64,000 bases of DNA, from NCBI GenBank assembly GCA_040757575.1, contig JBFLXA010000012.1, positions 4,707 to 68,706 of the forward strand, given 5' to 3'. The stretch is from Pseudomonadota bacterium (GTDB taxonomy: Bacteria > Pseudomonadota > Gammaproteobacteria > Burkholderiales > Thiobacillaceae). A program made the translations under genes and the position numbers. Below the pieces are notes generated by a model that had not been told where the DNA came from, ran no database searches, and worked only from the letters and a program-made list of their open reading frames with translations. Positions 21,233 to 40,599 of the stretch are shown here, piece by piece; positions within the stretch are counted from its first letter, which is position 1; each line of letters begins with the position of its first letter.

Positions 21233-22099
21233 TCAGGCCAGGGCCGGTTCGGCCTGCTGGGCAGCAGCCAGGAGTTCCGCCACACCCGCCGGCACCAGTT
21301 CGATGCCCAGCTTGTCCAGGAAGCGTTTTTCCTTGTCGTTGGCCTCGGGCATCAGGGCCCAGCCGGCGGGCTGGGCGGCGCCGAACCGGATGTCCGCCAG
21401 CACCATGCGTTCCGTATCCCGGTTCAGGCGCAAGCCCAGCAGCAGGTAGCGGCGGCCCTGGCGCATGCGCTTCAGGAAACCGGGAATGGCAAAGCCCCCC
21501 ATCAGCTCGGTGATGTAGTCCACAAAGTCTGCATCCGAGGCGATGTAGTTGGATTGGGGCAGGGGGGTGCCCAGGGGTTTGAACAACACCGGCAGGGTGG
21601 TGTCCACCGCGTCCTGCTCCACCTCCCGGTAGGCGGCGCCGTCGTAGTGGTACACCTTGAACCGGTAGGCCGTGCCGGCGATGCGGGCCACGCCCACGAT
21701 CAGGGTGTGGGGACGGCCGGCGTAGGCGGTCTGCAACAGGGTGTCCCGGTTCACGTCCACCACATAGGGCAGGCCCAGATCGGCCAGCCAGGTGTGCAGG
21801 GGGGAGGGGCTCCAGACCGTGTCCCGGTAGGTGCGGTCGAGAAACTTGGTGAGGGTGGAGCGGCCTTTCTTCAGTTCCACGTTCATGGCCGCCCGGGGGA
21901 ATTCATACATCAGCTTGGGGGCCATGGGCTGGCCGTTGTTCATGGCCAGGATCAGGCTGTCGCTGTCGGCGGGAATGGCCTGGCCCGTGGCCGGGTTGGT
22001 CACCCCGGCCAGGGCGCCGGCCCCCAGGTAGGGCACCAGATTGCCTTCACCCAGGGCGGAGAGGATGGCATCGAGTTGTTGGGAAACAGGGGTGGACAT
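21233..22099 (-). CDS. SIR2_2-like (SIR2 superfamily) protein, possibly catalytically divergent
   Basis: LVPYLGAGAL glycine-rich N-terminus, a DVNRDTLL block and FKPLG...DADFVDY resemble SIR2_2 proteins. GGAG RBS before the ATG at 22099 (codon 89 of the track ORF). Confidence 0.5.
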   Translation of the reverse strand: MSTPVSQQLDAILSALGEGNLVPYLGAGALAGVTNPATGQAIPADSDSLILAMNNGQPMAPKLMYEFPRAAMNVELKKGRSTLTKFLDRTYRDTVWSPSPLHTWLADLGLPYVVDVNRDTLLQTAYAGRPHTLIVGVARIAGTAYRFKVYHYDGAAYREVEQDAVDTTLPVLFKPLGTPLPQSNYIASDADFVDYITELMGGFAIPGFLKRMRQGRRYLLLGLRLNRDTERMVLADIRFGAAQPAGWALMPEANDKEKRFLDKLGIELVPAGVAELLAAAQQAEPALA

Positions 22100-22131
22100 C
22101 GCAGGCTCCATGAAAAGGGTGCCATGGGTTC

Positions 22132-22147
22132 TGCAAGTTGTAGGCCA
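22132..22147 (-). promoter_or_regulatory. sigma54 -24/-12 element for the SIR2-like/hemerythrin operon
   Basis: Minus strand reads TGGCCT-ACAAC-TTGCA, about 33 nt upstream of the ATG at 22099. Confidence 0.6.
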
Positions 22148-22154
22148 GACGACA
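22139..22154. promoter_or_regulatory. TGT-N10-ACA motif (possible NifA UAS for the plus-strand promoter)
   Basis: TGTaggccagacgACA. It overlaps the minus-strand -24 box and lies about 180 bp upstream of the plus-strand -24 box. Confidence 0.3.
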
Positions 22155-22325
22155 ATTCCCGTAGCCATCGGGCCTGGCGGTCCACGGCCTGTGTAGGGAA
22201 TCTGCCAAATCCGGAATTTTTGTTGCGCTTGGGCCTTGTCCAGGGCGGGCGGGCTTGGGTGGGGGACTCGTGCCGGGGCCATGGCCATGCGGTTTTGGCA
22301 GGCATCAGGGGCCCATGCGCCCGGT

Positions 22326-22341
22326 TGGCCTGCAACTTGCA
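22326..22341 (+). promoter_or_regulatory. sigma54 -24/-12 element for the 186-aa unknown gene
   Basis: TGGCCT-GCAAC-TTGCA, 40 nt upstream of the ATG at 22381. It differs at 1 of 16 positions from the divergent promoter. Confidence 0.65.
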
Positions 22342-22380
22342 CCAGCAATAGGGTTATCCACATCGACCAAGGGGTTACCC

Positions 22381-22941
22381 ATGCTGCTCGACCGCTACGA
22401 AAGCGAACAACAACTGTACAACGTCAACTTCAAGGAAGCTTCCGGCACCGGCTACTACGCCTACCGGGGGGACCTGGTGATCATCGACGGCGAGATCGCC
22501 GATGCCCAGGGCCGCCGCAAGCCGCCCCTGGCCGGCATGCTGGGGGGCGTACTGCTCACCGACGCCGACAAGATCAAGCTCCTGGCCGGCTCCATCGATG
22601 ACATGGCCCTCATCCCGCCCCTGCTGGAGAAATACCAGGCAGACTTTGCCCCGGACATGAAGGCCCTGATCTACGTGGTGAACATCGCCAAGCCCATGGT
22701 CACCGAACTGGGGGGCGTGAAGACCGTGCTCATCCCCATGACCGACGGCATGGTCTGGAACGAGATGATGGATGAACTGGCCCTGGAGAAAAGCGACTTC
22801 AAGGGCCAGAGCAGCGCCGAGAAGATCATCACCGTGCGGGGCGCGTTTGATGGCTACAAGCCCAAGTACGAGGAAGTCCCCCTGGAGGTGGCCATGACCC
22901 GCACCACAGACGCCAAACGGGAATCCCGGGGCCCGGTGTAA
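22381..22941 (+). CDS. hypothetical protein (186 aa), sigma54-driven
   Basis: The ATG at 22381 is codon 43 of the track ORF and follows a sigma54-type promoter. No family recognised. Confidence 0.6.
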   Translation: MLLDRYESEQQLYNVNFKEASGTGYYAYRGDLVIIDGEIADAQGRRKPPLAGMLGGVLLTDADKIKLLAGSIDDMALIPPLLEKYQADFAPDMKALIYVVNIAKPMVTELGGVKTVLIPMTDGMVWNEMMDELALEKSDFKGQSSAEKIITVRGAFDGYKPKYEEVPLEVAMTRTTDAKRESRGPV

Positions 22942-23388
22942 GGCCGGCTGCCGGCGGGCGGGGGCAGACATGCCTGCCCTGCCAGCCGGTTCTTCCAAAG
23001 CAAGCAAGCCATCACGCTCCTGGATTCCTGCTTGCGCGGGATGACGGATCGCGCGTGCCTTATCAAGCGGGCGCTTCAGTTGGGGAATCGCGAGGCATTG
23101 ACCGATCTATCTCAGGCCAATGACCTGCTCCGTCACGAAGCTCGATGGTCCGTACCGAACCTACAGCAGTGGCTTCCAGAAAGTGGCCACTTGAACGGCG
23201 GGTATTCGGCCTTTGCTGCCATTAGCACTCGGCGGTACGAATGTCCATTAATGAACGGTTACCTGCCACCCGCGTATAGAACATTTGATAATTCTCTGAA
23301 GATAGTCAGGTGCGGGTAGTGGCGAGTAAAAGCCCAGTCATCATCTGCAAGGGCTATCTAACAAGCCCATCTTTGTCTTTCCAACACG

Positions 23389-26289
23389 TTGCGGGACAAT
23401 CGGCGAAACTCCAACAACAATCAGGCAGTGATTTCCAGCTACCACACCAAATATCTCGCCTACGAGCTAACCCGCCGCTGCCCGCCTGACAGCGTCGAGA
23501 AGCTTGCTGGCGCTTTGGTCGATGCCCAGGTGGACCTCAACCCGCATCAGGTCGATGCCGCGCTCTTCGCCTTTCAGTCGCCGCTATCCAAGGGCGCCCT
23601 GCTGGCCGACGAAGTTGGCCTTGGCAAGACCATCGAAGCAGGCCTGGTTCTCTCCCAGAAATGGGCCGAACGCAAACGCCGCATCCTGATCATCACGCCT
23701 TCCAACCTACGCAAGCAGTGGTATCAGGAACTGGCCGAGAAATTCTTCCTGCCCTGCCGCATCCTCGAAGCGAAGTCCTACAACGCCGCCATTCGCCAGG
23801 GGCAATTCCGTCCCTTCGAGGCGCCCGAAATCGTCATCTGCTCTTACCAGTTCGCCAAGAGCAAGGCCGGCGACGTGCATGCCGTACCGTGGGACTTGGT
23901 GGTCATCGACGAAGCGCATCGGCTGCGCAACGTCTACAAGCCGTCCAACGTCATTGCCAACACGCTCAAGCTGGCGCTCGCTGGCAAGCACAAGCTGCTG
24001 CTCACTGCCACGCCGTTACAGAACTCGCTGCTGGAATTGTTCGGTCTGGTGAGCTTCATCGACGAACACACCTTTGGCGACCTGAAGAGTTTCCGCGAGC
24101 AGTTCGCCAACCTGGAGCAGGAACGGGTATTCCAAACGCTCAAGGCCCGCCTCAAGCCCGTCTGCCACCGCACGCTTCGCCGCCAGGTCACCGCCTACAT
24201 TCCCTATACCAAGCGCCTGCCGCTGGTGGAGGAGTTCACCCCGGAAGAAAGCGAAGACCGGCTCTACCATCTTGTTTCGGAGTACCTGCAACGGGACAAC
24301 CTTCAAGCCCTGCCGGCGGGCCAGCGTTCCCTGATGACGCTGGTGCTGCGCAAGCTCATGGCCTCGTCCACCTTTGCCATTGCTGGCGCGCTCACCTCCA
24401 TTTCCAACCGGCTCAAGGCCAAGCTGCGCAAGCAGGAACCTACGGAATCCCTCGAAGATGAGCTGGACCAGGACTACGAAGCCCTGGATGAGACCGCCGA
24501 GGAATGGACCGAAGACGATGCCGGCGAGTATCTGAGCGAGGCCGACCGCCAGGCCATCGAGCGTGAAATCGCCGACCTCGACGCATTCGCGCAACTGGCA
24601 GCCTCTATCGAATCCAACGCCAAGGGCAAGGCCCTGCTGAAGGCCCTGCGCATCGCTTTCGCCAAGGCGGAGGAAATCGGCGCGGCGCAGAAGGCCATCA
24701 TCTTCACCGAATCCCGCCGCACCCAGAACTACCTGCTGCGCGTACTGGCGGACAGCCCCTTCGCCGAGGGCGTCGTCCTGTTCAACGGCTCCAACACAGA
24801 TGAAGGCTCCAAGCTCATCTACAGCCAGTGGCTGGAACGCCATCAGGGCAGCGACCGGGTCACCGGCTCGCGCACTGCCGACATGCGCTCGGCCCTGGTG
24901 GACTACTTCCGCGAGCAGGGCCGCATCATGATTGCCACCGAGGCGGGTGCCGAAGGCATCAACCTCCAATTCTGCTCGCTGGTGGTCAATTACGATCTGC
25001 CCTGGAACCCCCAGCGTATCGAGCAGCGCATTGGCCGCTGCCATCGCTATAGCCAGAAGCACGACGTGGTGGTGGTCAATTTCCTCAACCGCAAGAACGC
25101 TGCCGATCAGCGCGTCTTTGAACTGCTGCGCGACAAGTTCCAGCTCTTCGAGGGCGTCTTCGGTGCCAGCGACGAAGTGCTGGGTGCCATCGAATCCGGC
25201 GTCGATTTCGAGAAACGCATCGCCGCCATCTACCAGACCTGCCGCAAGCCCGACGAGATAGCCACCGCATTCAACCAGCTCCAGCTCGAACTGAGCCTGG
25301 AAATCAACGAATCCATGACCCGTACACGGCAGAAGCTGCTGGAAAACTTCGACGACGAAGTCCGCGAAAAGCTCAAGGTGCGCGATGAAACCTCCAAGGC
25401 GTACCTGAACCGCTATGAACGCCTGCTTATGCAGCTCACCCGGCATGAGCTGGAGGGCCAGGCCGAGTTTCTGGGCGATGCCTCGTTCCGCCTTACAACC
25501 AACCCCTTCCCCGAACAGGCTGGTGCCATCCCCCTGGGCTTGTACGAACTTCCGCGCCGAACCGGCGAAGCACATCTCTACCGCCTCAATCACCCCCTGG
25601 CCGAGGCCATCGTCACCCAGGCGAAGAGGCGAGACCTGCCCGTTGCGGAAATCCGCTTCGATTACGGCAGGCATGATGGCAAGGTCACGACGCTTGAGCC
25701 GCTCATCGGCAAGTCTGGCTGGTTGGCCCTGACTCAGTTCAGCGTGGAATCCCTGGATCAGGCGGAAGACCACTTGATCTTTTCCGCCATCACCGATGAA
25801 GGCCAGATGCTGGAGGAGGAAATCGCGCAGCGGCTGTTGACGCTGCCTTGTGCTTCCACTCCCCAACCGTGCGTGGTAGAGGCGGGGATAAACGAATCCC
25901 TCGGCCGGCATGCCCAGAACCGCCAGACCGCCATCCAGCGCACCATCTCCGAACGCAATGCCCGCATTTTCGAGGCCGAAGCCGACAAACTCGACGGCTG
26001 GGCCGACGACCTGAAAGTTGGCCTGGAGCGGGAAATCAAGGAAATTGACCGCCAGATCAAGGAAGCCCGCCGTGCCGCCACCACGGCACTGACCCTGGAG
26101 GAAAAGCTCTCCGGTCAGAAGCAGATCAAGGCACTGGAGGCCCAGCGCAACCAGAAGCGCCACTCCCTGTTCGATGCCCAGGATCAGGTGGACAGGCAGC
26201 GGGAGGAGTTGATTTCCGCCATCGAGGGCAAACTAAATCAAGTTACCAGCTTGCAGTCCCTGTTTCTGCTGCGTTGGACGCTGGGCTGA
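23389..26289 (+). CDS. SNF2-family helicase/translocase with a ~330-aa C-terminal extension
   Basis: SNF2 motifs LADEVGLGKTIEAG (I), DLVVIDEAHRLRN (II), LLLTATPLQNS (III), ATEAGAEGINLQ and WNPQRIEQRIGRCHRYSQ (V/VI). Coiled-coil tail. TTG start. Confidence 0.9.
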   Translation: MRDNRRNSNNNQAVISSYHTKYLAYELTRRCPPDSVEKLAGALVDAQVDLNPHQVDAALFAFQSPLSKGALLADEVGLGKTIEAGLVLSQKWAERKRRILIITPSNLRKQWYQELAEKFFLPCRILEAKSYNAAIRQGQFRPFEAPEIVICSYQFAKSKAGDVHAVPWDLVVIDEAHRLRNVYKPSNVIANTLKLALAGKHKLLLTATPLQNSLLELFGLVSFIDEHTFGDLKSFREQFANLEQERVFQTLKARLKPVCHRTLRRQVTAYIPYTKRLPLVEEFTPEESEDRLYHLVSEYLQRDNLQALPAGQRSLMTLVLRKLMASSTFAIAGALTSISNRLKAKLRKQEPTESLEDELDQDYEALDETAEEWTEDDAGEYLSEADRQAIEREIADLDAFAQLAASIESNAKGKALLKALRIAFAKAEEIGAAQKAIIFTESRRTQNYLLRVLADSPFAEGVVLFNGSNTDEGSKLIYSQWLERHQGSDRVTGSRTADMRSALVDYFREQGRIMIATEAGAEGINLQFCSLVVNYDLPWNPQRIEQRIGRCHRYSQKHDVVVVNFLNRKNAADQRVFELLRDKFQLFEGVFGASDEVLGAIESGVDFEKRIAAIYQTCRKPDEIATAFNQLQLELSLEINESMTRTRQKLLENFDDEVREKLKVRDETSKAYLNRYERLLMQLTRHELEGQAEFLGDASFRLTTNPFPEQAGAIPLGLYELPRRTGEAHLYRLNHPLAEAIVTQAKRRDLPVAEIRFDYGRHDGKVTTLEPLIGKSGWLALTQFSVESLDQAEDHLIFSAITDEGQMLEEEIAQRLLTLPCASTPQPCVVEAGINESLGRHAQNRQTAIQRTISERNARIFEAEADKLDGWADDLKVGLEREIKEIDRQIKEARRAATTALTLEEKLSGQKQIKALEAQRNQKRHSLFDAQDQVDRQREELISAIEGKLNQVTSLQSLFLLRWTLG

Positions 26290-26293
26290 GACC

Positions 26294-28069
26294 ATGCCGA
26301 CCAGAGAGGAAAAAATCGCCCAACTCGAAGCCGCATTGCGAGGCCGCTTCTTTGCTAGCGTCCCCAAAATCGTGAAAGCCGGGCGCGAAAACTGGGCCGA
26401 TGACCAACACAATCTGGATCGTCTGACTCGCTCGCTCGCGGCCTACGCCGTGGTCGGATACTGCGAGATCGATGACACCACGGCGGTCGGCGCGATTACC
26501 GACGGTAGCGACGACGGTGGTATCGACGCCCTGTATTTTGATCGGCCCGGCAGTCGCTTGGTCTTCGTGCAGTCGAAGTTCAAGCCCGGTGGTACGGCCC
26601 CCTCCCAAGCGGAAGTCCAGAAGACCATCAACGGCATCAAGGCCATTCAAGCCAGACAGTTCAACGGTTTCAACGAAGCCATCCGCAACCGCCTGGATGA
26701 CATCGAAGAAGCACTCGACACCCCCGGCGTCAAACTGATGTTGCTGCTACCCTTCCTGGGCGACGCCATCGGGCCGCACGCCACCAACGACCTGAACGCT
26801 TTCAGGGATAGCCTGAATCAATTTTCCGAGGTCATGCAGTGGCAAGCCGTAAACCTGGATACGGCCTACGGCTGGCTGGTCGTGGAACAGGCACCGGCAA
26901 CCGTAGATGACCAAGTCGTTCTGGAAAACTGGTACGGAGTCCCTGGCCCGCGCAAAGCCTTCTATGGCCAGATCACGGCGGCGAACCTCGCCAAGCTGGT
27001 GGAAGACCACGGCAGGGCATTATTCGAGCGCAATATCCGGCATTACCTGGGTTCCGTCGGCGTGAACACCGCCATCGAGCGAACCGTGCGCACGCGGCCG
27101 GGCGATTTCTTCTACCTCAACAACGGCATCACCGCGATTGCCGACATCATCACCCAGGCGGCCGGAACCCATCAGAAGTGCGCCTTTGGCTGTACCAGGC
27201 TGTCCATCGTCAACGGCGCCCAGACGGCCGGGGCAATCTTCAACGCCACCCAGGTTGGGCAAATTTCTCCGGACGCCAAGTTGTTGCTGACCCTCATCGA
27301 GATCGGCGACGACGCAGACGACATCGGCCTGAAAATCACCCGCGCGCGCAACCACCAGAATGTCGTGCGCGGCGTTGATTTCGCCGCCCTCGATCCCAAC
27401 CAGGAGCGGCTGCGGCAAGAGCTTTCGGCGGCGAGTATCACCTATCACTACCGGCCTTCTGCGGAAGCGCGGGTACGGCGCGAGGATGCCTTTACCCTGG
27501 AGGAGGCCGCCATTGCCGTGGCCTGCCTGAACTTCAAGGTCAGGAACGCCGCCGAATTGCTACAGCACCCCAGGCCGACTAACGCCATCGACTTCACGGT
27601 GACCGCCAAGAAGGAAATCGGCCGCTTGTGGGAACAGGACGGCACACTCTACGACCTGCTTTTTCCAACCAACCTGTCCGGGCTGCGCCTTTGCCGGCTC
27701 GTGCGCATCTATCGCTTCGTCGACGCCATTCTTGCCGCTACCGAAAGATCGGAAGCCCAGTACAGCCGGCGCATGTTCTTCCGCCATGGCCGCTACTTCA
27801 TCATGGCTTTCGTCGCGCTCCGTTCCGCCGACGTACTCGGGAAACCACGGTTCGAACTTGCCGATGAAGACCGGACCCTTCTGTCCCAGCGCACCAACGA
27901 GATTTCCGAATTGATCTACGCAGCCTCGGTCCCGTATCAAGCAATGCGGGGTTATCTAGCAATCTTTCGCAACCTCACGGATTCCCAGCCGCTGGCCTAC
28001 AACGTTTTGCAACGATTGGCTGAACAAGATGCCCAACATGAGCAACCAGCACCGCCCATAGGCACCTGA
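26294..28069 (+). CDS. AIPR-family (abortive infection phage resistance) protein
   Basis: N-terminal nuclease-like DGSDDGGIDALYFD...VFVQSKF. AIPR core ERNIRHYLGSVGVN, FFYLNNGITAIA and IVNGAQT. The start is 4 nt after the SNF2 stop. Confidence 0.85.
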   Translation: MPTREEKIAQLEAALRGRFFASVPKIVKAGRENWADDQHNLDRLTRSLAAYAVVGYCEIDDTTAVGAITDGSDDGGIDALYFDRPGSRLVFVQSKFKPGGTAPSQAEVQKTINGIKAIQARQFNGFNEAIRNRLDDIEEALDTPGVKLMLLLPFLGDAIGPHATNDLNAFRDSLNQFSEVMQWQAVNLDTAYGWLVVEQAPATVDDQVVLENWYGVPGPRKAFYGQITAANLAKLVEDHGRALFERNIRHYLGSVGVNTAIERTVRTRPGDFFYLNNGITAIADIITQAAGTHQKCAFGCTRLSIVNGAQTAGAIFNATQVGQISPDAKLLLTLIEIGDDADDIGLKITRARNHQNVVRGVDFAALDPNQERLRQELSAASITYHYRPSAEARVRREDAFTLEEAAIAVACLNFKVRNAAELLQHPRPTNAIDFTVTAKKEIGRLWEQDGTLYDLLFPTNLSGLRLCRLVRIYRFVDAILAATERSEAQYSRRMFFRHGRYFIMAFVALRSADVLGKPRFELADEDRTLLSQRTNEISELIYAASVPYQAMRGYLAIFRNLTDSQPLAYNVLQRLAEQDAQHEQPAPPIGT

Positions 28070-28272
28070 CCGGCCAATGACGGGAAAACTATGATAAAGG
28101 AGTTACATCCCATGCCCCCAACGATTGGCAAGCTGGAGCCACCATAGGGTGAGGCTCACGCTATGAGCTTGATCACTGGAATCATTAGGCAGTGGGCGTA
28201 GCCGTGGTAAATGGCTTTGGTAATCCATCTTTTCGTGGCGCGATAACAATAGGGCACTGTAAGGAGTTGGAC

Positions 28273-28407
28273 ATGATGAGCAGCAAGGTGTTTAAGGAAT
28301 GCAGTAACTCCTTGGCTGGGAGAGGTGCGGAAAAATGTCTGCACCCACTTCAAGATTCTCTGCTTCGACCTGGAAGAGTTCATGCACCTACAGGTTGGAC
28401 GTTCTGA
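28273..28407 (+). CDS. candidate small protein (44 aa) in the AT-richer spacer
   Basis: Strong RBS AAGGAG 6 nt before the ATG. No homology recognised. It could equally be a leader or regulatory region. Confidence 0.25.
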   Translation: MMSSKVFKECSNSLAGRGAEKCLHPLQDSLLRPGRVHAPTGWTF

Positions 28408-28428
28408 GCGCTAATTTACGCATACGCC

Positions 28429-29175
28429 ATGTCACAAACCAGCCGTATCGAGTGGACTGAAGCGACCTGGAACCCGACCGTGGGTTGCAGCAAGATTTCC
28501 GCTGGCTGTAAGCACTGCTATGCGGAGGCCATGGCCAAGCGGCTCAAGGCCATGGGAACGCCCGGCTACGAGAACGGTTTCCAGCTGACACTCTTGCCGA
28601 ACAGATTGTCGGAACCGATCAATCGAAAAAAACCCGCCGTCTATTTTGTTAACTCAATGTCGGACCTTTTCCATAAGAAGGTTAGCGACACCTACATCGA
28701 ACAGGTCTTCGATGTCATTGAGCGTTGCCCTCAACATACTTTCCAGATACTCACCAAACGTGCGGAGCGGCTGGTCTCGTATTTCAGGCCTCGTACCGTG
28801 CCATCCAATGCATGGATTGGCGTGACAGTTGAAGACAAATTGAGTGGCCTAGCGCGAATCGATTGCCTAAGGAAAGTGGAAGCGCGCATACGCTTCCTAT
28901 CGATTGAGCCGCTACTAGAAGATCTGGGCAAGCTAAATCTTGACGGCATCCACTGGGTAATCGTGGGAGGGGAATCAGGGCCGAAGGCCAGGCCGATGAA
29001 GGTCGAATGGGTGGAAAATATCCGCCAGCAATGCGAAGCACAGAAAGTGCAGTTCTTTTTCAAACAATGGGGAGGGTGGGGGGCCGATGGCAAGCGGCGC
29101 TCCAAGAAAGCCAATGGACGGCTACTCGCAGGCCGTACTTGGGATGACATGCCCGCAGTATCCGCCTTGCCTTGA
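28429..29175 (+). CDS. DUF5131 / phage Gp37-Gp68 family protein (three-Cys motif)
   Basis: Family hallmarks IEWTEATWNPTVGCSKISAGCKHCYAE (C-x6-C-x2-C), FVNSMSDLFH, FQILTKR, FLSIEPLL, WVIVGGESG and FFFKQWGG. Confidence 0.9.
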   Translation: MSQTSRIEWTEATWNPTVGCSKISAGCKHCYAEAMAKRLKAMGTPGYENGFQLTLLPNRLSEPINRKKPAVYFVNSMSDLFHKKVSDTYIEQVFDVIERCPQHTFQILTKRAERLVSYFRPRTVPSNAWIGVTVEDKLSGLARIDCLRKVEARIRFLSIEPLLEDLGKLNLDGIHWVIVGGESGPKARPMKVEWVENIRQQCEAQKVQFFFKQWGGWGADGKRRSKKANGRLLAGRTWDDMPAVSALP

Positions 29176-29183
29176 AGGAAGTT

Positions 29184-30455
29184 ATGTCTCGCAAGCCATA
29201 CAACTGGAAAAATGGGCCCGATCTCATACAACCGCATAGTATTGCCAAACACCGGATACTGCAGTCGTATCTGGCCGCGTATTTCCAGACCTTGGTCAGC
29301 TCGCCCAATCAGGATGTTCTTCGACTCACACTTGTGGATGGTTTCGCCGGTGGTGGTCAATACGTCCACAGCGATACCGGTGAACTCGTCAAGGGTTCCC
29401 CCTTCATCTTTCTCGATGCTACCCGCGAGGCGGATTTTCTGATCAACCAGGGGCGCAGGAAGCCCGTTGACCTGAAGGTTGACTATTTTTTCATCGAAGC
29501 CGATCGTTATGCTCACGCGCATCTCGACAAGGTGTTGCGGGAAGAAGGACATGGCGGTCATATCGGAAACAACATCCAGCTCCGCCATGCCAAATTTCAG
29601 GACGAAGCTGACGACATCATCGATTTCATTAAACGGAAAAGCCCAAAAAATGGCCGGTCGATCTTCGCACTGGATCAATATGGTTACAAAGACATACCGG
29701 CTCCACTGGTCCGAAAGATCTTTGCCCAATTACCAAGCGCCGAAGTCATCCTGACTTTCGGCGTCGACTCATTCCTGAATTTCGCCGGCGTAGGCGAACT
29801 CACGCAGTCGTTGCTTGATGAAATCGGCATACCGGACATCCTGCAAGGCCGCTCTATCGATGAGATCAAAAACTCCGAAAAAGACTGGCGTCTGTTCATA
29901 CAAAGCGGACTTTACCGCTCATTGGTAAATCGATGTGGTGCCAAGTACTACACGCCCTTTTTCATCCGGAACAAGAAAGGGCATGGCGATTACTGGCTTA
30001 TCCACCTTTCGCAGCATCACCGGGCACGCGACGTCATGACCGAGGTGCACTGGAATAACAACAATTACTTTATCCACTATGGTGGTCCAGGGTTGGAGAT
30101 GTTCCAGATGGTCGGCTACGACCCGGATCATGACGATGAACGCAAGGGCCAAACCTGTTTGGGGTTCGAGTTCGACGATGTCGCCCGCAAAGCCAGCATT
30201 GCCGCTTTGAATGAACAGATACCCCGCCTTGTTTATGCCAATGCTGAAGGCCTCAGCTTTGGTGAGTTGTTTGCCACGACCTGCAATGAGTCGCCAGCTT
30301 CGGCGATTATTTATCGGGACTCCTTGGGGCAACAGCTTGAGGGGAGAGTGGTTGAGATCATCAGTCCGGAGGGGGTGAAACGCCGTTCGGCCCAGCAAAT
30401 AAAATCGAGCGATCAAATTATTGCGCCGCCCCAGCGGTCACTATTTTTCCCATGA
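29184..30455 (+). CDS. tcmP: three-Cys-motif partner protein TcmP-like
   Basis: N-terminal HSIAKHRILQSYLAAYF...LTLVDGFAGGGQY matches my memory of the TcmP family. Position immediately after a DUF5131 gene is the defining context. AAGGA RBS; the alternative TTG at 29172 overlaps the upstream stop. Confidence 0.75.
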   Translation: MSRKPYNWKNGPDLIQPHSIAKHRILQSYLAAYFQTLVSSPNQDVLRLTLVDGFAGGGQYVHSDTGELVKGSPFIFLDATREADFLINQGRRKPVDLKVDYFFIEADRYAHAHLDKVLREEGHGGHIGNNIQLRHAKFQDEADDIIDFIKRKSPKNGRSIFALDQYGYKDIPAPLVRKIFAQLPSAEVILTFGVDSFLNFAGVGELTQSLLDEIGIPDILQGRSIDEIKNSEKDWRLFIQSGLYRSLVNRCGAKYYTPFFIRNKKGHGDYWLIHLSQHHRARDVMTEVHWNNNNYFIHYGGPGLEMFQMVGYDPDHDDERKGQTCLGFEFDDVARKASIAALNEQIPRLVYANAEGLSFGELFATTCNESPASAIIYRDSLGQQLEGRVVEIISPEGVKRRSAQQIKSSDQIIAPPQRSLFFP

Positions 30456-32134
30456 AAAACAAGCAAAAACTCGAACTCACCTGGATCGGCAAGGAGAACC
30501 GGCCCCGGCTTGAGCCGCGCATTTTGCTGGAAGACCCGGGGCGGAGTTATCACGCCGGGCATCGGGTGAGTGATGCGGACATCTTCGACAACCGGCTGAT
30601 CTTCGGCGACAACCTGCTGGCCTTGAAGGCGCTGGAGGCGGAGTTCGCGGGGCGGGTGAAGTGCGTGTTCATCGACCCGCCCTACAACACCGGCAGCGCC
30701 TTCACCCATTACGACGATGGGGTGGAGCATTCCCTGTGGCTGTCCCTGATGCGCGACCGGCTGGAGGTCATCCGGCGGTTGTTGTCGGAGGATGGGTCGC
30801 TGTGGGTCACCATCGACGACAACGAATGCCATTACCTCAAGGTGTTGTGCGATGAGGTGTTTGGGCGGGCGAATTTCGTAGCGAATGTGGTTTGGCAGAA
30901 AAAATATGCCGTAGCCAATGATCACAAGACAATTGCCCCAATGCACGACCATCTACTGGTCTATCGGAAAACAGATAGTTGGCAGAGGAATTTGATTCCT
31001 CGCACCGAGGAGAAAGATCGCCAGTACAAATTCGAGGATGAAAAAGGGGTTTTTCGGAACAGTGACTACACCTGTAGCAAGTCATTTGAGGAGCGTCCGA
31101 ATCTCTACTACCCAATTATTCAACCGAATACAGGTGAAGAGATTTGGCCCAGCAAGACACGTGTTTGGGCTTATTCCAGAGACGAACACCTACGGCATGT
31201 CGCAGAGGGATTCATCTACTGGGGCAAGGATGGACTTGGTAAGACGCCCTCATTTAAGCGATACAAACACTTGCTGCGCAATCAAGGCGTGGTACCGCAA
31301 ACGCTTTGGTCTCACGAATATGCCAGCCACACGGATGCCGCGAGAAAAGAAGTGCGTGCAGTACTGGGGAGCTTGTCTCTTGCAGATGATTTCATTACTC
31401 CAAAGCCAGAGGGCTTGATACAGCGTGTACTCGAAATCGCCACCAACCCCGGCGACCTCGTCCTCGACTCCTTCGCCGGTTCCGGTACCACCGGCGCGGT
31501 GGCCCACAAGATGGGCCGGCGCTGGATCATGGTGGAGCTGGGCGAGCACTGCCACACCCATATCATCCCGCGCCTGAAGAAGGTCATTGACGGCGCGGAC
31601 CCCGGCGGCATCACCGAGGCCGTCGGCTGGAAGGGCGGCGGCGGTTTCCGCTATTACCGGCTGGCGCCTTCGCTGCTGGAAAAGGACAAGTGGGGCAACT
31701 GGGTCATCCACCGGGACTACAACGCCGCCATGCTGGCCGAGGCGCTGTGCAAGCTGGAAGGCTTCACCTATGCGCCTTCCGACGCGGTGTATTGGCAGCA
31801 CGGCCATTCCACCGAGCGGGATTTCCTCTACGTCACCACCGCCACTTTGTCCCACGAACAGTTGCAGCAGCTGGCCGACGAGGTGGGGCCGGAGCGTACG
31901 CTGCTGGTGCTGTGCCCGGCCTTCCGCAGCAGGGGCGATTTCGCCAACCTGACGGTGAAGAAGATTCCGAAGCAGGTGCTGTCCCGTTGCGAGTGGGGAC
32001 ATGACGATTATTCCTTGCGAGTGGAGAACTTGCCGGCGGCGCCGGAGCCCTCTCCCCCGGCCCCTCCCCCGCTTGCGGGGGAGGGGAGACAGACTGCCGC
32101 CCAACAGAACCTGTTCGACGGGGAACCATCATGA
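30452..32134 (+). CDS. mod: Type III restriction-modification DNA methyltransferase (Mod, N6-A/N4-C beta class)
   Basis: Motif IV FIDPPYNTG precedes motif I LDSFAGSGTTGAVA, with a variable central region between them. The start overlaps the tcmP stop (ATGA). The last ~30 codons are REP-derived. Confidence 0.9.
   Translation: MKNKQKLELTWIGKENRPRLEPRILLEDPGRSYHAGHRVSDADIFDNRLIFGDNLLALKALEAEFAGRVKCVFIDPPYNTGSAFTHYDDGVEHSLWLSLMRDRLEVIRRLLSEDGSLWVTIDDNECHYLKVLCDEVFGRANFVANVVWQKKYAVANDHKTIAPMHDHLLVYRKTDSWQRNLIPRTEEKDRQYKFEDEKGVFRNSDYTCSKSFEERPNLYYPIIQPNTGEEIWPSKTRVWAYSRDEHLRHVAEGFIYWGKDGLGKTPSFKRYKHLLRNQGVVPQTLWSHEYASHTDAARKEVRAVLGSLSLADDFITPKPEGLIQRVLEIATNPGDLVLDSFAGSGTTGAVAHKMGRRWIMVELGEHCHTHIIPRLKKVIDGADPGGITEAVGWKGGGGFRYYRLAPSLLEKDKWGNWVIHRDYNAAMLAEALCKLEGFTYAPSDAVYWQHGHSTERDFLYVTTATLSHEQLQQLADEVGPERTLLVLCPAFRSRGDFANLTVKKIPKQVLSRCEWGHDDYSLRVENLPAAPEPSPPAPPPLAGEGRQTAAQQNLFDGEPS
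32048..32088. repeat. REP-like element, family A, lying inside the 3' end of mod
   Basis: CCCTCTCCCCCGGCCCCTCCCCCGCTTGCGGGGGAGGGGAG. It is translated in frame as PSPPAPPPLAGEG. Confidence 0.8.
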
Positions 32135-33216
32135 GCGGCAAGGGGCGTACCCCGCCGCCGGCACAGACTGCCGGCGCACTGAACGGCGGCGAATTTCTGC
32201 TGTACCAGACCGAGGATGCCCAGACCCGCGTGCAGTTGCGGGTGTCCGAGGGCACCGTCTGGATGACCCAGAAGCAGCTCGCCGAGCTGTATCAGGTGAG
32301 CGTGCCGGCCATTGCCCAGCACATCCGCAATATCTACTCGGAGCGGGAGCTGGCCCCGGAGGCAACTGTTAAAGATTACTTAATAGTTGCCCCGGAAGCC
32401 GCGCGGACAGTGGAACGGCGCATCGCCCACTACCGGCTGGAGATGGTGCTGGCCATCGGCTACCGGGTGCGTTCCCATCGCGGCACCCAGTTCCGCCGCT
32501 GGGCGACGGAGCAGCTCAAGAGCTATCTGGTGAAGGGCTTCGTGCTGGACGACGAGCGCTTCAAACGCGGGGACGACACCTATTTCGACGAGTTGCTGGC
32601 CCGCATCCGGGACATCCGCTCCTCGGAGAAGGTGTTCTGGAAGAAGGTGCTGGATATCTATGCCACCAGCATCGATTACGACCCCTCGGCGGAAGCCTCG
32701 CAACGCTTCTTCGCCACGGTGCAGAACAAGATGCACTGGGCGGCCCATGGCCATACGGCGGCGGAATTGGTTGTACTGCGCGCGGATGCGCATGCGCCCA
32801 ACATGGGCATGACCAATTGGCCCGGCGCAGCCAAAGGAGGTGCGATCCGCAAGGCGGATGCCGGTGTGGCCAAGAACTATCTCAACGAAGCGGAACTGGA
32901 GACGCTGAACCGGATCGTGAACGCCTACCTGGAATTCGCCGAGTTGCAGGCCCAGGCCCGGCGGGAAATGACCATGGCCACCTGGATTGGCAAGCTGGAC
33001 GACTTCCTGCGTCTATCGGACCGGGAGGTGTTGACCCATGCCGGCAAGATCACGGCGGAACTGGCGCAGGCCAAGGCGGAGGCGGAATTTCGGGTTTTCC
33101 AGCAGCGCCAGCTCGCCGCTCCTAGCAGGGTGGAACAGGATTTCGAGGCAGCCATCGAGGTGGAGGTGAAGCTGTTGGAGAAAACCACCAAGAAGAACAA
33201 GGGGAAAAAGGGATGA
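32131..33216 (+). CDS. RhuM-family protein (COG3943) inserted between mod and res
   Basis: Characteristic blocks VWMTQKQLAELYQVS, AIGYRVRSHRGTQFRRWATEQLK, DYFDELLARIRDIRSSEK and KMHWAAHGHTAAEL. ATGA overlaps on both sides. Confidence 0.85.
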   Translation: MSGKGRTPPPAQTAGALNGGEFLLYQTEDAQTRVQLRVSEGTVWMTQKQLAELYQVSVPAIAQHIRNIYSERELAPEATVKDYLIVAPEAARTVERRIAHYRLEMVLAIGYRVRSHRGTQFRRWATEQLKSYLVKGFVLDDERFKRGDDTYFDELLARIRDIRSSEKVFWKKVLDIYATSIDYDPSAEASQRFFATVQNKMHWAAHGHTAAELVVLRADAHAPNMGMTNWPGAAKGGAIRKADAGVAKNYLNEAELETLNRIVNAYLEFAELQAQARREMTMATWIGKLDDFLRLSDREVLTHAGKITAELAQAKAEAEFRVFQQRQLAAPSRVEQDFEAAIEVEVKLLEKTTKKNKGKKG

Positions 33217-35903
33217 ACCGCCACGTCAACGCCATCGCCGGCCGCCTGAGCCTGCGCCATCCGCAACGCCGCTCGCTGGAAATCCTGGACCGCATCACCG
33301 AGATCGCCCCGCCAAGCAAGGACGTGGACCTGGCGGCGGTGCTGGAGACCATCAAGAGCGAGTTTCCGTCGGTGACGGACTTCGAGCGGGAGTTTCCGTC
33401 CCTATGCTTTGCCCTGGCCACAGGGGTGGGCAAAACACGCCTCATGGGTGCCTTCATCAGTTATCTGCATCTGGCCCACGGCATCAACAACTTCTTTGTG
33501 CTGGCGCCCAACCTGACCATCTACAACAAGCTGATTGCCGATTTCAGCGACCGCAACCATCCCAAGTATGTGTTCCGGGGCATCGCCGAGTTCGCCATCG
33601 ACGCGCCGTCGATCATCACCGGCGACAACTACGACCAGCGCGATCCCATGAGCGGCACGCTGTTCGGCGGGGTGAGGATCAACATCTTCAACATCTCCAA
33701 GATCAATTCGGAAGTGCGCGGCGGCAAGTCGCCCCGCATCAAGCGGCTGTCGGAATACATCGGCGAGAGCTATTTCGACTATCTGGCTGGCTTGCCGGAT
33801 CTGGTCATGCTGATGGATGAATCGCATCGCTATCGAGCCAGTGCCGGCATTCGCGCCATCAACGAATTGAAGCCGATCCTGGGGCTGGAGCTGACGGCCA
33901 CGCCCTTCGTGGAGACCACGCGGGGTGCTACGGCCTTCAAGAACGTGATTGTTGACTACCCCCTGGGCCGGGCAATGGCCGATGGCTTCGTCAAGGAACC
34001 GGCGGTGGTGACGCGGAAGAATTTCAACCCGGCGGGCATGTCGGTGGAGGAGATCGAGCGGCTGAAACTGGAAGACGGTGTGCGTCTGCATGAGTCCGTG
34101 AAGGTGGAGCTGGAGACCTATGCCCGCGAGAGCGAGAACCCGATCGTCAAGCCGTTCCTGCTGGTGATTGCCCGTGATACCACCCACGCCGGGCAACTGA
34201 CCGAGCTGATCAAGTCCGACAAATTCTTTGAGGGGCGCTATCGGGACAAGGTCATCCAGGTGGATTCGAGCAAGACCGGCGCGGAAGAAGAGGAGATGAT
34301 CGGCCGACTGCTCAAGGTGGAGCACACCGACGAGCCGACGGAGATCGTGATTCACGTCAACATGCTCAAGGAGGGCTGGGACGTGACCAATCTCTACACC
34401 ATCGTGCCGCTGCGTGCCGCCAATGCCCGCATCCTCATCGAGCAATCCATCGGGCGCGGTCTGCGCCTGCCCTATGGCAAGCGCACCGGCGTCATGGCAG
34501 TGGACCGGCTGAATATCGTTGCCCACGACAAATTCCAGGAGATCATCTCCGAGGCCAACAAGCCGGATTCGGCGATTCACTTGCAGGCCGTGGTGCTGGA
34601 CTCAGAAGACCTGGGCCAGAAGACCGCCACGGTGGTGTCGCAATCTCAATTGGCCTCGAAGCTGGGGCTGAAACCCGCCCAGGTGACCAGCAACACGGTG
34701 GTGGCGGGTGGCGAAACTGTGCCGGTTTTCACCAAGCCCGAAGAGCAGAAGGTGGCCCAGATCACCTTTGATGTCATCCGCAAGCTGGAAAACCAGCCGC
34801 AGACGCTGCCTACCGTCGAATACCTGAAGAAGCCGGAGATACAGGCCGCCATCATCAAGGCTGTAGAAGAACAGCACCAGCCGGCGCAGTTGGAACTGGA
34901 AGGGGTGGCGGAGAAGCCTGACATTGCTGCCGTGGTGGCGAAGACGGTGGAACTGGTCACGCAACAGACCATCGATATCCCGCGCATTCTGGTGGTGCCC
35001 AAAGGTGAGGTGAAATCAGGCTTCAAACCGTTCACCCTGGACCTGACCACGCTGAAATATCCGGCAGTATCCGATGAGCTTTGGATTCAGCACCTGCGCA
35101 CGAATCAGCTTGAAGTTGTTGCCCTCGGCCGGGGCGGCATCGAGGAAGCCCGGCTGGAAGATTATGTGGTCAGCGGTCTGGTGGACTTCGACGACATTTC
35201 CTACGACCACCACTCCGACTTGCTCTATGACTTGGCAACGCAGACCGTGGCGCACTTCCGGACCTATCTTGCCGAAGACGACGCGCGCAAGGTGTTGCGA
35301 TGCTACCAGCGCGACATCGCCCGTTTTATCCACGCCCAGATGCAGGCCCATTACTGGGAGGATGTGGCCGGCTACGAGGTGAAGATCAACAAGGGCTTCA
35401 CCGAGCTGAAGCAGAGTGCCTACACCTATTCGGTACAGGAACCGCCCGCCAGTTACCGGGTGGAACCGGCGGACAAAAGCAACATGGCGAAGTACCTCTT
35501 CGGCGGCTTCGAGAAATGCCTGTACCCAGTGCAGAAGTTCGATTCGGACTCCGAACGCAAACTGGCGGTGATTCTGGAGCGGGACGCCCTCAAGTGGTTC
35601 AAGCCTGCGAAGGGACAGTTCCAGATTTATTACCGGGATGGGGCAGATCATCGGGAATATCAGCCGGATTTCATTGCCGAGACGACCGACGCAATTTATA
35701 TGCTGGAACCCAAGAAGCGCACGGAGCTGGATGACCCCATTGTTCAGGCCAAGAAGGAGGTGGCTGTGCAGTGGTGCGCGAATGCTTCAGATCATGCGGC
35801 GAGTTACAGCGGCAAGCCGTGGCGCTATGTGCTGATTCCCCATGATGAGATTGCTGAGAACATGACGCTTGAGGGCGTGGCGGCGCGGTTTGGTTGCACT
35901 TGA
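33213..35903 (+). CDS. res: Type III restriction endonuclease Res subunit (SF2 helicase + PD-ExK nuclease)
   Basis: Helicase motifs LATGVGKT, LMDESHRY, LELTATPF and EGWDVTN...QSIGRGLR. C-terminal nuclease motif YQPDF-x12-EPKK. Confidence 0.9.
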   Translation: MNRHVNAIAGRLSLRHPQRRSLEILDRITEIAPPSKDVDLAAVLETIKSEFPSVTDFEREFPSLCFALATGVGKTRLMGAFISYLHLAHGINNFFVLAPNLTIYNKLIADFSDRNHPKYVFRGIAEFAIDAPSIITGDNYDQRDPMSGTLFGGVRINIFNISKINSEVRGGKSPRIKRLSEYIGESYFDYLAGLPDLVMLMDESHRYRASAGIRAINELKPILGLELTATPFVETTRGATAFKNVIVDYPLGRAMADGFVKEPAVVTRKNFNPAGMSVEEIERLKLEDGVRLHESVKVELETYARESENPIVKPFLLVIARDTTHAGQLTELIKSDKFFEGRYRDKVIQVDSSKTGAEEEEMIGRLLKVEHTDEPTEIVIHVNMLKEGWDVTNLYTIVPLRAANARILIEQSIGRGLRLPYGKRTGVMAVDRLNIVAHDKFQEIISEANKPDSAIHLQAVVLDSEDLGQKTATVVSQSQLASKLGLKPAQVTSNTVVAGGETVPVFTKPEEQKVAQITFDVIRKLENQPQTLPTVEYLKKPEIQAAIIKAVEEQHQPAQLELEGVAEKPDIAAVVAKTVELVTQQTIDIPRILVVPKGEVKSGFKPFTLDLTTLKYPAVSDELWIQHLRTNQLEVVALGRGGIEEARLEDYVVSGLVDFDDISYDHHSDLLYDLATQTVAHFRTYLAEDDARKVLRCYQRDIARFIHAQMQAHYWEDVAGYEVKINKGFTELKQSAYTYSVQEPPASYRVEPADKSNMAKYLFGGFEKCLYPVQKFDSDSERKLAVILERDALKWFKPAKGQFQIYYRDGADHREYQPDFIAETTDAIYMLEPKKRTELDDPIVQAKKEVAVQWCANASDHAASYSGKPWRYVLIPHDEIAENMTLEGVAARFGCT

Positions 35904-36221
35904 TAAATCGTCTGCGCTGATCATAGTTTGTGGCCGAAAGACTGCTAAGCGATGTATTGCAGGCCAATTCAGACCGTAGACTCAAGGTCGGCAACGGCCG
36001 ATGAGCACTCAGTGGACTGGCGTCCCAAGGGACCACTGCTCACAGATACTTGCCATTGGAGCCCCGAGAACCGTTTTTCCGTAACGAGGTGACTGCGCCT
36101 GAGCGACTCCGATGGAACAGTCATTCACTTGGACATCGACTTGTCTGTCCCGGGTCAAGTGCAATGTGATTCATGGTCGGGTGATGCGCGATCCAGCAGT
36201 CACGTGGGCCGGTAACCCGCA

Positions 36222-36930: not shown

Positions 36931-37866
36931 TCAGGTTGTTGCATATTCCACTTCATACACCCCGCCGATTACCGCGTATTCATCCTCTCCCGCCAGCCGG
37001 CCCGGCAGCAGGCCATGGAAGAAAGCCACCTTGGCCAGGGGCACTTCCACTTCCAGGATGAAGTCGCCGAACTCCCCGGCCCGCTCCCGGTTGCGGGTGA
37101 AGGAGGACAGGCTGTTGAGCAGTACCACCCGGCGGGGTTTGTCGCGGAGGTTGTCTGCGGGGTGGGCCATCTCGTACAGGGTTTCGTGGTCCCCCATGTG
37201 GTTCACGCCCCGGTAAAGGGTGATATGGGTCTGGCCCAGGCGCTGGCGGCCCAGTTCGTACTGGCAGTAGGTGTAGAGCAGGTCCAGCTGGGCTTCCAGG
37301 GCGTTGGTGCCGTACAGGCCCCGGGAACGTTGTTCCAGGTAGGCCCGGTAGGGCAGGGCGGAGAAATCCCGGATGGGGCCGCCGTGGTGGCGGGGCAGCA
37401 GGCCAAAGCAGGATTCCACCCAGCCCTTGAGCACGGCGCCTTCCTGGCCGTCGCTGTCGAAGGCCCAGCCCCGCAGCAGGCGCAGGTAGTGGGCCTTGGC
37501 CCGGGCATGGCGGGCGTTGTCCCGCCAGCCCGCTTCTTCCGGGCTGTCCAGGCTGAAGGCGGCGGCCATGTGGTTCTGGAACAGGCGGGCGCGTTCAGCG
37601 GGGTCGGCAAGACGATCCAGGGCCATGAACAGGGGCTTGTGGAGTTCCAGCACGCCGTCCAGGGCCAGGGCCACGGGGCGTTTCTGGTAGGCCAGGCTGC
37701 CCAGCAGCACCGCCGGCAGGCTGCACCGGTTGATGGGCAGGCGGGCCTGGCGGGGCAGGCTGGCACGGTCCCGGTCTGCGGTGGTGTGTGTTGTAGGCAG
37801 CGCGACAAAGTTTTGCGTTTTGTCGTGTGCCACTCCCGTATCAGGATCGTTATGTCCTGTTTTCAT
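36931..37866 (-). CDS. draT: NAD+-dinitrogenase reductase ADP-ribosyltransferase DraT
   Basis: DraT blocks EGAVLKGWVES, LEAQLDLLYTYCQYEL, LYRGVN and GEDEYAVIGG. Divergent from nifH. Confidence 0.88.
   Translation of the reverse strand: MKTGHNDPDTGVAHDKTQNFVALPTTHTTADRDRASLPRQARLPINRCSLPAVLLGSLAYQKRPVALALDGVLELHKPLFMALDRLADPAERARLFQNHMAAAFSLDSPEEAGWRDNARHARAKAHYLRLLRGWAFDSDGQEGAVLKGWVESCFGLLPRHHGGPIRDFSALPYRAYLEQRSRGLYGTNALEAQLDLLYTYCQYELGRQRLGQTHITLYRGVNHMGDHETLYEMAHPADNLRDKPRRVVLLNSLSSFTRNRERAGEFGDFILEVEVPLAKVAFFHGLLPGRLAGEDEYAVIGGVYEVEYATT
37792..37807. promoter_or_regulatory. NifA-type UAS (TGT-N10-ACA) upstream of nifH
   Basis: TGTaggcagcgcgACA, about 100 bp upstream of the -24 box and inside the 5' end of draT. 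Confidence 0.6.
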
Positions 37867-37883
37867 GTCTTTATATTCAATGA

Positions 37884-38873
<990 letters not shown>

Positions 38874-38880
38874 TGTTGAA

Positions 38881-38975
38881 GCCCCTCCCCCGCCGGGGGA
38901 GGGGTTGGGGAGAGGGTGGGTTCGCCAACGCGACTTTCCCTCACCCCCGGCCCCTCTCCCGGTGGGAGAGGGGAG
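38881..38975. repeat. REP-like element, family A (two units in opposite orientations)
   Basis: GCCCCTCCCCCGCCGGGGGAGGGG...GGGGAGAGGG and CCCTCACCCCCGGCCCCTCTCCCGGTGGGAGAGGGGAG in the nifH-nifD spacer. Confidence 0.8.
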
Positions 38976-39029
38976 TGACCAACCCAACATGCTGTCCACA
39001 GATTGGTGGCAGCGTGAAAGGAGAAAGAA

Positions 39030-40505: not shown

Positions 40506-40510
40506 TGCAA

Positions 40511-40540
40511 GCCCCTCCCCCGCAAGCGGGGGAGGGGAGT
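40511..40540. repeat. REP-like element, family A (single hairpin)
   Basis: GCCCCTCCCCCGCAAGCGGGGGAGGGGAG in the nifD-nifK spacer. Confidence 0.8.
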
Positions 40541-40599
40541 GAAACCGATCAACCTTTTGCCGGTATCCACAGATGGGTGGTGCCGGTAAGGAGATGAAC

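Follow-up and report, generated by a model that had tools for sequence, protein, structure and literature searches.

Within the window, the 64,000-nucleotide (nt) stretch of contig JBFLXA010000012.1 (assembly GCA_040757575.1, a Pseudomonadota bacterium of the Thiobacillaceae) that was analysed and to which all positions refer, a gene for an SNF2 helicase is followed at positions 23389-28069 by a gene for a protein of the AIPR family. The analysis indicates, with a probability that we put at roughly 0.7, that these two genes open a mobile defence cassette of about 12.8 kb (approximately 23205-36001) with seven co-oriented genes, of which three form the invariant core: one for an SNF2 ATPase of the IetH/DrmD-like type, one for a Type III-like methyltransferase, Mod, the target recognition domain (TRD) of which can be swapped, and one for a Type III-like Res protein that combines an SF2 ATPase with a PD-ExK nuclease. 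The junctions between SNF2 and Mod and between Mod and Res are two slots for interchangeable defence genes; in the window, the first slot is occupied by AIPR and a DUF5131 gene with its partner, and the second by RhuM. AIPR is one of many swappable accessory defence genes of the cassette, yet it is no random cargo. The original prediction, made from the sequence alone, had treated SNF2 and AIPR as a self-contained two-gene module, which comparative genomics does not bear out: what recurs is a single SNF2-slot-Mod-slot-Res cassette, and AIPR is found in about 5% of SNF2-seeded loci. The data favour the alternative that it had named, namely that the pair cooperates with the Type III operon next to it, Mod and Res being the constant partners of SNF2.

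The genome, metagenome and viral scans covered the best 80 loci each, and the frequencies obtained from them are to be read as estimates. When an AIPR alignment served as the seed of the genome scan and all open reading frames (ORFs) of the 80 loci were clustered, the recurrent unit was SNF2-AIPR-Mod-Res, with AIPR followed by Mod in 58 and by Res in 53 of the 80 loci, often with overlaps of 4 nt. The window holds this unit, split by the DUF5131 gene and its partner and by RhuM. Where a locus included SNF2, AIPR and enough downstream DNA, Mod was present in 57/60 cases and Mod together with Res in 51/60. In the co-occurrence survey that had been proposed as a check, SNF2 precedes AIPR in AIPR-seeded loci, whereas AIPR is rare in SNF2-seeded ones. 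Among metagenomic SNF2-seeded loci with enough downstream DNA, an N6_N4 Mod lies downstream in 54/65 and AIPR occurs in 5/65; AIPR was found in 1/32 SNF2-seeded loci on viral contigs and, adjacent to SNF2, in 1/50 plasmid records with SNF2 (from Deinococcus). Every Res-bearing plasmid record that was checked also carries SNF2, and SNF2-Mod-Res free of any cargo was found in L099, L109, L161 and L165, and on a Ketogulonicigenium plasmid. Many bacterial phyla have the cassette, and it is also present on proviral contigs and on conjugative plasmids from Salmonella, Klebsiella and E. coli. Of 5426 complete E. coli genomes, 253 (~4.7%) contain an SNF2 gene that resembles the family at the nucleotide level, all inspected examples being annotated as SNF2-related, and native SNF2-Abi-AIPR-Mod-Res cassettes were found in 20 E. 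coli genomes.

These counts bear directly on the possibility that SNF2 and AIPR form an autonomous pair of a sensor/translocase and an effector, which the Type III operon adjoins by chance. Such a pair would fit the tight juxtaposition of the two genes, which are separated by no more than 10 nt in 38/62 loci, and the finding that the AIPR subclades A-C described below lie only next to this SNF2 family; in addition, the helicase IetH of the published ietHAS system defends together with IetA/IetS as a three-gene construct, Mod and Res being unmentioned (PMC13069673). However, no locus with enough sequence contained SNF2 and AIPR without Mod/Res, the exceptions being contig ends or decayed copies, and all candidates for autonomous loci of SNF2 plus any effector without Mod-Res were contig ends or disrupted by insertion sequence (IS) elements. 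About 95% of the SNF2 family members are without AIPR, the stop of AIPR frequently overlaps the start of Mod, and other cargo can lie between SNF2 and AIPR. Moreover, SNF2 tracks Res, not AIPR: where all four genes were present (40 loci), pairwise identities correlate with r=0.89 for SNF2-Res, r=0.50 for SNF2-AIPR, and r=0.10 for AIPR-Mod. SNF2 co-evolves with Res and much less with AIPR, and an autonomous two-gene system is regarded as unlikely. Two loci, L040 and L078, are decayed cassettes, in which short SNF2 remnants and a truncated AIPR stand before an intact Mod-Res.

The exchange of slot genes was observed directly, as were the gene architecture, its recurrence and the conservation of motifs. 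The locus L081 lies at a different chromosomal site and encodes SNF2 and Res proteins that are 91% and 95% identical to those of the window, but the position of AIPR and the DUF5131 pair is taken there by a Bro-N gene and a gene for a 128-residue protein. The two cassettes are homologous at the DNA level over 23205-26277; this homology breaks at the SNF2 stop, resumes at the Mod start, skips the TRD, and ends about 100 nt past Res, a pattern that defines both edges of the cassette as well as the slot. In E. coli, a cassette 99.7% identical to an AIPR-bearing one is without AIPR. The 77 proteins that were collected from the two junctions include ABC/SMC-like ATPases, DUF1016/YhcG (PDC-S02), RhuM (PDC-S05), OLD-type TOPRIM proteins, DUF2813, SIR2+HerA, GmrSD, Schlafen, and M78 peptidase; IetA/IetS likewise occur as slot contents. 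Nearly all slot genes are co-oriented with the core, and a locus in Ferrovum contains a long train of them. The SNF2|Mod slot hosts ABC/SMC-like ATPases, IetA/IetS, GmrSD and AIPR (L001-L165), while DUF1016/YhcG and RhuM are mostly found in the Mod|Res slot, RhuM occurring elsewhere in a few loci. AIPR was seen in the first slot only, and never in the Mod|Res slot of the sampled loci.

The left edge of the cassette is an AT-richer leader (23205-23388, plus strand), the start of which is the point where homology to L081 begins. The original prediction had pointed to an AT-richer upstream region and to a further AT-richer spacer that would separate SNF2 and AIPR from the next operon. The base composition holds, with a GC content of 48-50% in the leader (23200-23399) and 50% in the spacer (28070-28428, 359 nt), against 63.6% in the window, but the separation does not: the spacer is the edge of the inserted DUF5131 pair and no operon boundary. 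Its positions 28334-28407 are homologous to the stretch immediately upstream of Mod in L086, and the DUF5131 pair therefore appears to have been inserted between that Mod leader and Mod. One weak sigma-70-like match is present in the leader (23263-23292); pattern scans for promoters and terminators gave no more matches than expected by chance.

Unlike enterobacterial versions of the cassette, the window has no small conserved helix-turn-helix (HTH) ORF in its leader. On enterobacterial plasmids and chromosomes (L166, L167, L253, L258), a small HTH gene overlaps the start of SNF2 and seems to encode a controller protein for the cassette. One of these loci, L167 on E. coli plasmid pEC316_2 (9037-18557), is the version with large Mod and Res and lies on an IncF plasmid close to psiB/psiA/ParB, in the plasmid region that enters the recipient first; IS elements are found between the cassette and psiB/psiA/ParB.

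The remaining slot genes of the window are embedded cargo. The DUF5131 gene (28429-29175, plus strand; Pfam DUF5131 E=1e-108) corresponds to the PADLOC candidate PDC-M30B (E=1e-115), and its partner (29172-30455, plus strand) encodes a protein with a GMT-like winged HTH domain (Pfam GMT-wHTH; PDC-M30A E=1e-23) and overlaps both flanking genes by 4 nt. The GC contents of the two genes are 54% and 52%, respectively, compared with about 60% in the cassette. L017, L023 and L070 also have the pair, behind Res or at another position. The Mod|Res slot contains a gene of the RhuM family (32131-33216, plus strand; Pfam Virulence_RhuM E=2e-109; PDC-S05 E=5e-139), and in other loci this slot holds RhuM or DUF1016.

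The features that the original prediction had read from the two genes themselves, a 966-residue SNF2 protein with ATPase motifs and a 591-residue AIPR protein encoded 4 nt later, were confirmed by the ORFs, by Pfam and by the junction. The SNF2 ORF (23389-26289, plus strand), conserved first gene of the cassette, has 966 codons when counted from a TTG. Its homologues begin at the motif 'M.LTDYH.KY', and similarity to relatives at the DNA level sets in at 23426-23440; because homologue N-termini and DNA homology both begin there, the true start is probably the GTG at 23428, which would give a protein of 953 residues. Pfam assigns residues 67-299 to SNF2-rel_dom (E=3e-36) and 479-554 to Helicase_C (E=2e-18), and both lobes of an SNF2/Swi2 ATPase are present together with motifs I (GLGKT, 77-81), II (DEAH, 174-177), III (TATP, 206-209) and VI (QRIGRCHRY, 546-554), which are invariant in 12 diverse homologues. 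The C-terminal extension with a coiled coil that had been noted is in fact a family-defining domain: the region from about residue 620 to 966 characterizes a family of SNF2 proteins of about 950-990 residues, always at their end, and was found at E<=1e-30 in 361 clusters of 50% identity when 1.84 billion representatives were searched. A crude heptad scan supports a coiled-coil-like, heptad-rich stretch at about residues 848-960. A profile of the domain had no match among PDB sequences, and a relaxed Pfam search of the C-terminus returned noise only. The closest relatives of both the SNF2 and the AIPR protein belong to Betaproteobacteria of the Rhodocyclales/Nitrosomonadales type.

It is extremely improbable that the helicase is instead the DrmD of a DISARM system or an orthologue of the housekeeping protein RapA/HepA, unrelated to its neighbours. 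The best PADLOC/NCBIfam matches are indeed DrmD models, and RapA is the nearest solved structure by sequence. However, DrmD_b (NF038318) scores 692 bits where 950 are required and covers the ATPase core alone; the second DrmD model, NF038317, to which the C-terminal region also aligns, scores 267 against a cutoff of 610; and the RapA equivalog PRK04914 reaches 178 against 576. No match to DrmA, DrmB (DUF1998) or DrmC (PLD) was found by Pfam or PADLOC among the cassette genes and two genes on each side, and DISARM was rejected on the scores together with these missing partners. RapA/HepA was rejected as well on its score, and the gene travels with Mod-Res between genomes, on plasmids and islands, and on proviral contigs. 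The window helicase is a defence-type SNF2 protein that is DrmD-like and not RapA, in agreement with the family originally proposed for it.

The two other core genes present all sequence features of Type III restriction-modification (R-M), namely a beta-class Mod followed by a Res with SF2 motifs and a PD-ExK motif. Mod (30452-32134, plus strand; N6_N4_Mtase) matches the PADLOC model MTase_III PDLC03636 over its full length with 695 bits and has DPPY at residue 75 and FAGSG at residue 341, the beta-class order with a central TRD. The TRD (about 30869-31396, residues ~140-315) is conserved to 24-35%, compared with about 80% for the flanks, and it has been swapped relative to close relatives: no DNA homology to L081, L001 or L086 is left in this part, and the GC content falls to 48%. 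Res (33213-35903, plus strand; ResIII; PADLOC REase_III PDLC03648, 720 bits) is a Type III-like SF2 ATPase with a C-terminal PD...ExK nuclease; across 40 orthologues there is no variation in its Walker A motif, DESH, motif VI, P818-D819 and E832-x-K834. The Res of EcoP15I (4zcf) matches it at E=2e-7 over the helicase part, and a relaxed Pfam search of the C-terminus gave noise only. With EcoP15I and other Type III R-M systems the cassette shares the order Mod-Res, the N6_N4 methyltransferase of the beta class with a central TRD, and the SF2 + PD-ExK Res; it differs from them by the SNF2 gene before Mod-Res in the loci examined, by the two internal cargo slots, and by a Res that is only distantly related to that of EcoP15I. 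The same SNF2 family also precedes two further Type III subfamilies, one with Mod and Res proteins of about 1100 residues and one with an EcoP15I-like Res that has an RE_endonuc domain.

The AIPR gene (26294-28069, plus strand, 591 codons, 4-nt gap to SNF2 at 26290-26293) encodes an optional accessory effector. Residues 244-397 match Pfam AIPR (PF10592) with E=1e-33 and 117.6 bits, against a gathering score of 25, and the protein is a member of the AbiU family (PADLOC AbiU E=1e-29), its original assignment to AIPR being correct. It had also been suggested that the N-terminus resembles a PD-(D/E)xK nuclease. In favour of this, D70, D74, D78, Q93 and K95 ('GGIDALYFD...VFVQSKF') are invariant in 73/73 AIPR proteins, both embedded and free-standing, and in an AlphaFold model of residues 1-245 (predicted local distance difference test, pLDDT, 84; predicted template modelling score, pTM, 0.77) D78 and QxK lie on consecutive strands of a hairpin, at the start of the first and at the end of the second. 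For this part, the best Foldseek matches were FokI (2fok) and MspJI (4f0p), with probabilities of 0.57-0.66, BstEII, and XPF/Hef, all at E~0.1, which is not significant, and no profile matched: relaxed Pfam searches of the N- and C-terminus returned noise only, and an AIPR profile had no match among PDB sequences. A model of the whole protein (pLDDT 77.7, pTM 0.41) likewise had no significant match in the PDB. A nuclease-like fold of the AIPR N-terminus is plausible but unproven on the basis of this predicted model; the AbiU prototype AbiUi has been described as resembling the FokI nuclease (PMC13064643, a recent review), a resemblance that is weakly echoed here. The motifs NNG (276-278) and NGxQT (307-311) are likewise invariant in the 73/73 AIPR proteins compared. 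A reading of 'IVNGAQT' as a ParB-like DGQQR motif was rejected, hhalign against a GmrSD/DUF262 protein giving a probability of 0.3%.

The AIPR proteins of the cassettes fall into three subclades, A (that of the window; 38 proteins), B (22) and C (4), with a mutual identity of 28-33%. All three are cassette-embedded and cluster together, apart from stand-alone AIPR proteins. The median pairwise identity in the 40 loci is 46% for AIPR, 68% for SNF2 and 67% for Res, so that AIPR evolves much faster than the core. Taken together, three diverged, cassette-restricted subclades and fast divergence point to an old, slot-specific, fast-evolving accessory lineage. In L037 (8186-11764) and L048 (8096-11686), the SNF2|Mod slot holds two AIPR paralogues in tandem, which belong to different subclades.

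The main rival of a functional connection is that AIPR is a self-sufficient, AbiU-like single-gene defence that hitch-hikes in the slot and has no link to SNF2, Mod or Res. AbiUi of Lactococcus lactis works alone, conferring weak resistance and delaying phage transcription (PMC13064643); AIPR genes that stand alone are found on small plasmids and elsewhere; AIPR co-evolves weakly with the core and is lost or replaced between near-identical cassettes; and the slot hosts many unrelated defence genes. Against hitch-hiking stand the confinement of three old subclades to one slot, apart from their free-standing relatives, the absence of AIPR from the Mod|Res slot in the sampled loci, and the published behaviour of IetH, which shows that a slot effector can depend on SNF2 (PMC13069673). 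While AbiUi is a single-gene system, the AIPR clade of the window was seen only inside SNF2-Mod-Res cassettes. We consider hitch-hiking rather doubtful, and the autonomous two-gene system less likely still.

The link to ietHAS (Liu-DS4) of E. coli places the cassette next to experimental work. In that system an SNF2 helicase, IetH, which has been called DrmD-like, is combined with the AAA ATPase IetA and the S8 protease IetS (PMC13069673, NAR 2026). Defence against T7 is lost with the IetH mutations K65A and D165A, and mutants of IetH are toxic to the cell (PMC13069673). The system defends as a three-gene construct, the main text of the paper mentions no methyltransferase or Type III system, and the reported prevalence of ietHAS is >1.5% of E. 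coli genomes (PMC13069673). In E. coli O104:H4, a locus next to tRNA-Phe in an island with an integrase (L256, NC_018650.1:932553-943316) has the gene order SNF2, AAA ATPase, S8 peptidase, Mod, Res. Its SNF2 protein, WP_000286652.1, has the Walker A lysine at position 65 and the aspartate of DEAH at position 165, the residues that were mutated in IetH, and it is 44% identical to the window protein end to end (residues 1-945 versus 1-953). By its sequence, the window helicase is a member of the IetH family, the match being made via this O104:H4 protein with the published K65/D165 positions. SNF2-IetA-IetS is contiguous with Mod in 74/5426 complete E. coli genomes, near the published prevalence of ietHAS, and IetA/IetS are also found in the slot of L084 and L105. 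IetA/IetS fill the slot that AIPR holds in the window, where they are absent behind the helicase and AIPR and the DUF5131 pair occupy that position. The two systems thus share the SNF2 family including the C-terminal domain, an effector directly after SNF2, and, in E. coli, the same Mod-Res behind, and they differ in the effector, IetA/IetS in one case and AIPR in the other.

The cassette most probably works as follows, all enzymatic and regulatory steps being inferred. By homology, Mod would mark host DNA, and Res together with Mod would cut unmarked DNA. The SNF2 motor would work with Res as a constant third partner, as suggested by co-evolution, and, in view of the IetH experiments and by analogy, it would also keep slot effectors silent until infection and then license them. 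AIPR would be a nuclease-like, AbiU-type effector and form a second line of defence, probably an abortive one, against phages that evade restriction. A functional coupling of SNF2 and AIPR is plausible by analogy; the sole hint from experiments at a dependence of slot effectors on the helicase comes from ietHAS.

Several observations weigh against this model and the cassette reading behind it. The ietHAS construct apparently acts without Mod-Res, and SNF2 may serve slot effectors independently of restriction; the role of SNF2 toward Res is deduced from co-evolution alone. The structure matches behind the proposed nuclease fold of the AIPR N-terminus are below significance. AIPR relatives act or occur alone, as the weak resistance conferred by AbiUi illustrates (PMC13064643), and enterobacterial plasmids of 5.6 kb carry AIPR without SNF2. 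Finally, other cargo separates AIPR from SNF2 in L016, L023, L056, L100, L102, L163 and E. coli EC29 (NZ_CP060867.1), where the gene order is HTH-SNF2-Abi-AIPR-Mod-Res.

A more general proposal, which we put forward as tentative, is that IetH-type SNF2 proteins are hubs that couple a Type III-like core to interchangeable second-line effectors in the slot behind them. In that case AIPR, IetA/IetS, GmrSD, ABC-ATPase/OLD-type proteins and further effectors would be kept inactive on host DNA by SNF2 and set free when infection occurs. If this were true, SNF2 and AIPR would be a genuine helicase-controlled nuclease module, and ietHAS would exemplify a modular system that is far larger and has gone unrecognised.

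Irrespective of such a hub, the seven-gene reading redraws the unit: an apparent two-gene system and a neighbouring Type III operon become a single, very widespread cassette, which current annotation splits into an 'SNF2-related protein', a 'site-specific DNA-methyltransferase' and a 'DEAD/DEAH box helicase'. The parts are of known kinds, namely Type III R-M, the AbiU/AIPR family, an IetH/DrmD-like SNF2 protein and embedded cargo. In keeping with the original prediction, which did not recognise SNF2-AIPR as a named system, no name for SNF2+AIPR or SNF2+Type III was found in the literature searched, nor did we find descriptions of the SNF2-Mod-Res trio as a unit with two slots, of ietHAS inside the cassette, or of a slot-specific AIPR lineage. 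The cassette is a defined place to study the modular exchange of defence genes and bears on the function of DrmD-like SNF2 helicases in methylation-based immunity. With ietHAS located inside it, one may ask whether IetH acts for the effector, for the restriction enzyme, or for both. Native E. coli strains with SNF2-Abi-AIPR-Mod-Res or SNF2-IetAS-Mod-Res would allow direct testing.

Further comparisons were made with other known defence systems. DrmD of class 1 DISARM belongs to the nearest annotated SNF2 family, and both systems act in methylation-based defence; in contrast to DISARM, the window is without DrmA, DrmB, DrmC and DrmMI, and its methylase and nuclease partners are Type III-like. 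MZA resembles the cassette in having an AIPR protein, MzaE, within a multi-gene defence operon; it was rejected, with an MzaE score of 41.5 against a cutoff of 1050 and no other PADLOC Mza model matching cassette genes. MADS had been suggested by the MAD1 annotation of the upstream HTH of E. coli in one record and by weak mad3 matches of slot ATPases of relatives. None of the mad models was among the PADLOC matches listed for the cassette genes of the window, in which the mad6-mad8 core was sought, and MADS was rejected because it has no SNF2 and a different core (preprint 10.1101/2023.03.30.534895). Abortive effectors nested co-directionally between restriction genes are also represented by PrrC in EcoprrI, where PrrC guards the restriction complex, as well as by the candidates RhuM (PDC-S05) and DUF1016 (PDC-S02); in contrast to the PrrC arrangement, the host system of the cassette is a Type III-like trio with SNF2 and not Type I.

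Just upstream of the cassette, on the opposite strand, a 376-residue protein with a SIR2_2 domain is encoded (21233-22363, minus strand), adjoined by an ORF of 210 codons (22375-23007, minus strand) with a low GC content at third codon positions (GC3). PADLOC models matched neither of the two, and the SIR2_2 gene may be a separate, unclassified defence gene. Farther downstream, an ORF of 912 codons (37863-40601, minus strand) overlaps the high-GC3 plus-strand ORFs 37887-38873 and 39030-40505; it has no Pfam or PADLOC match and is therefore probably a shadow ORF. Directly after the cassette lies a gene for DRAT, the dinitrogenase reductase ADP-ribosyltransferase (36931-37866, minus strand), which suggests a nitrogen-fixing host.

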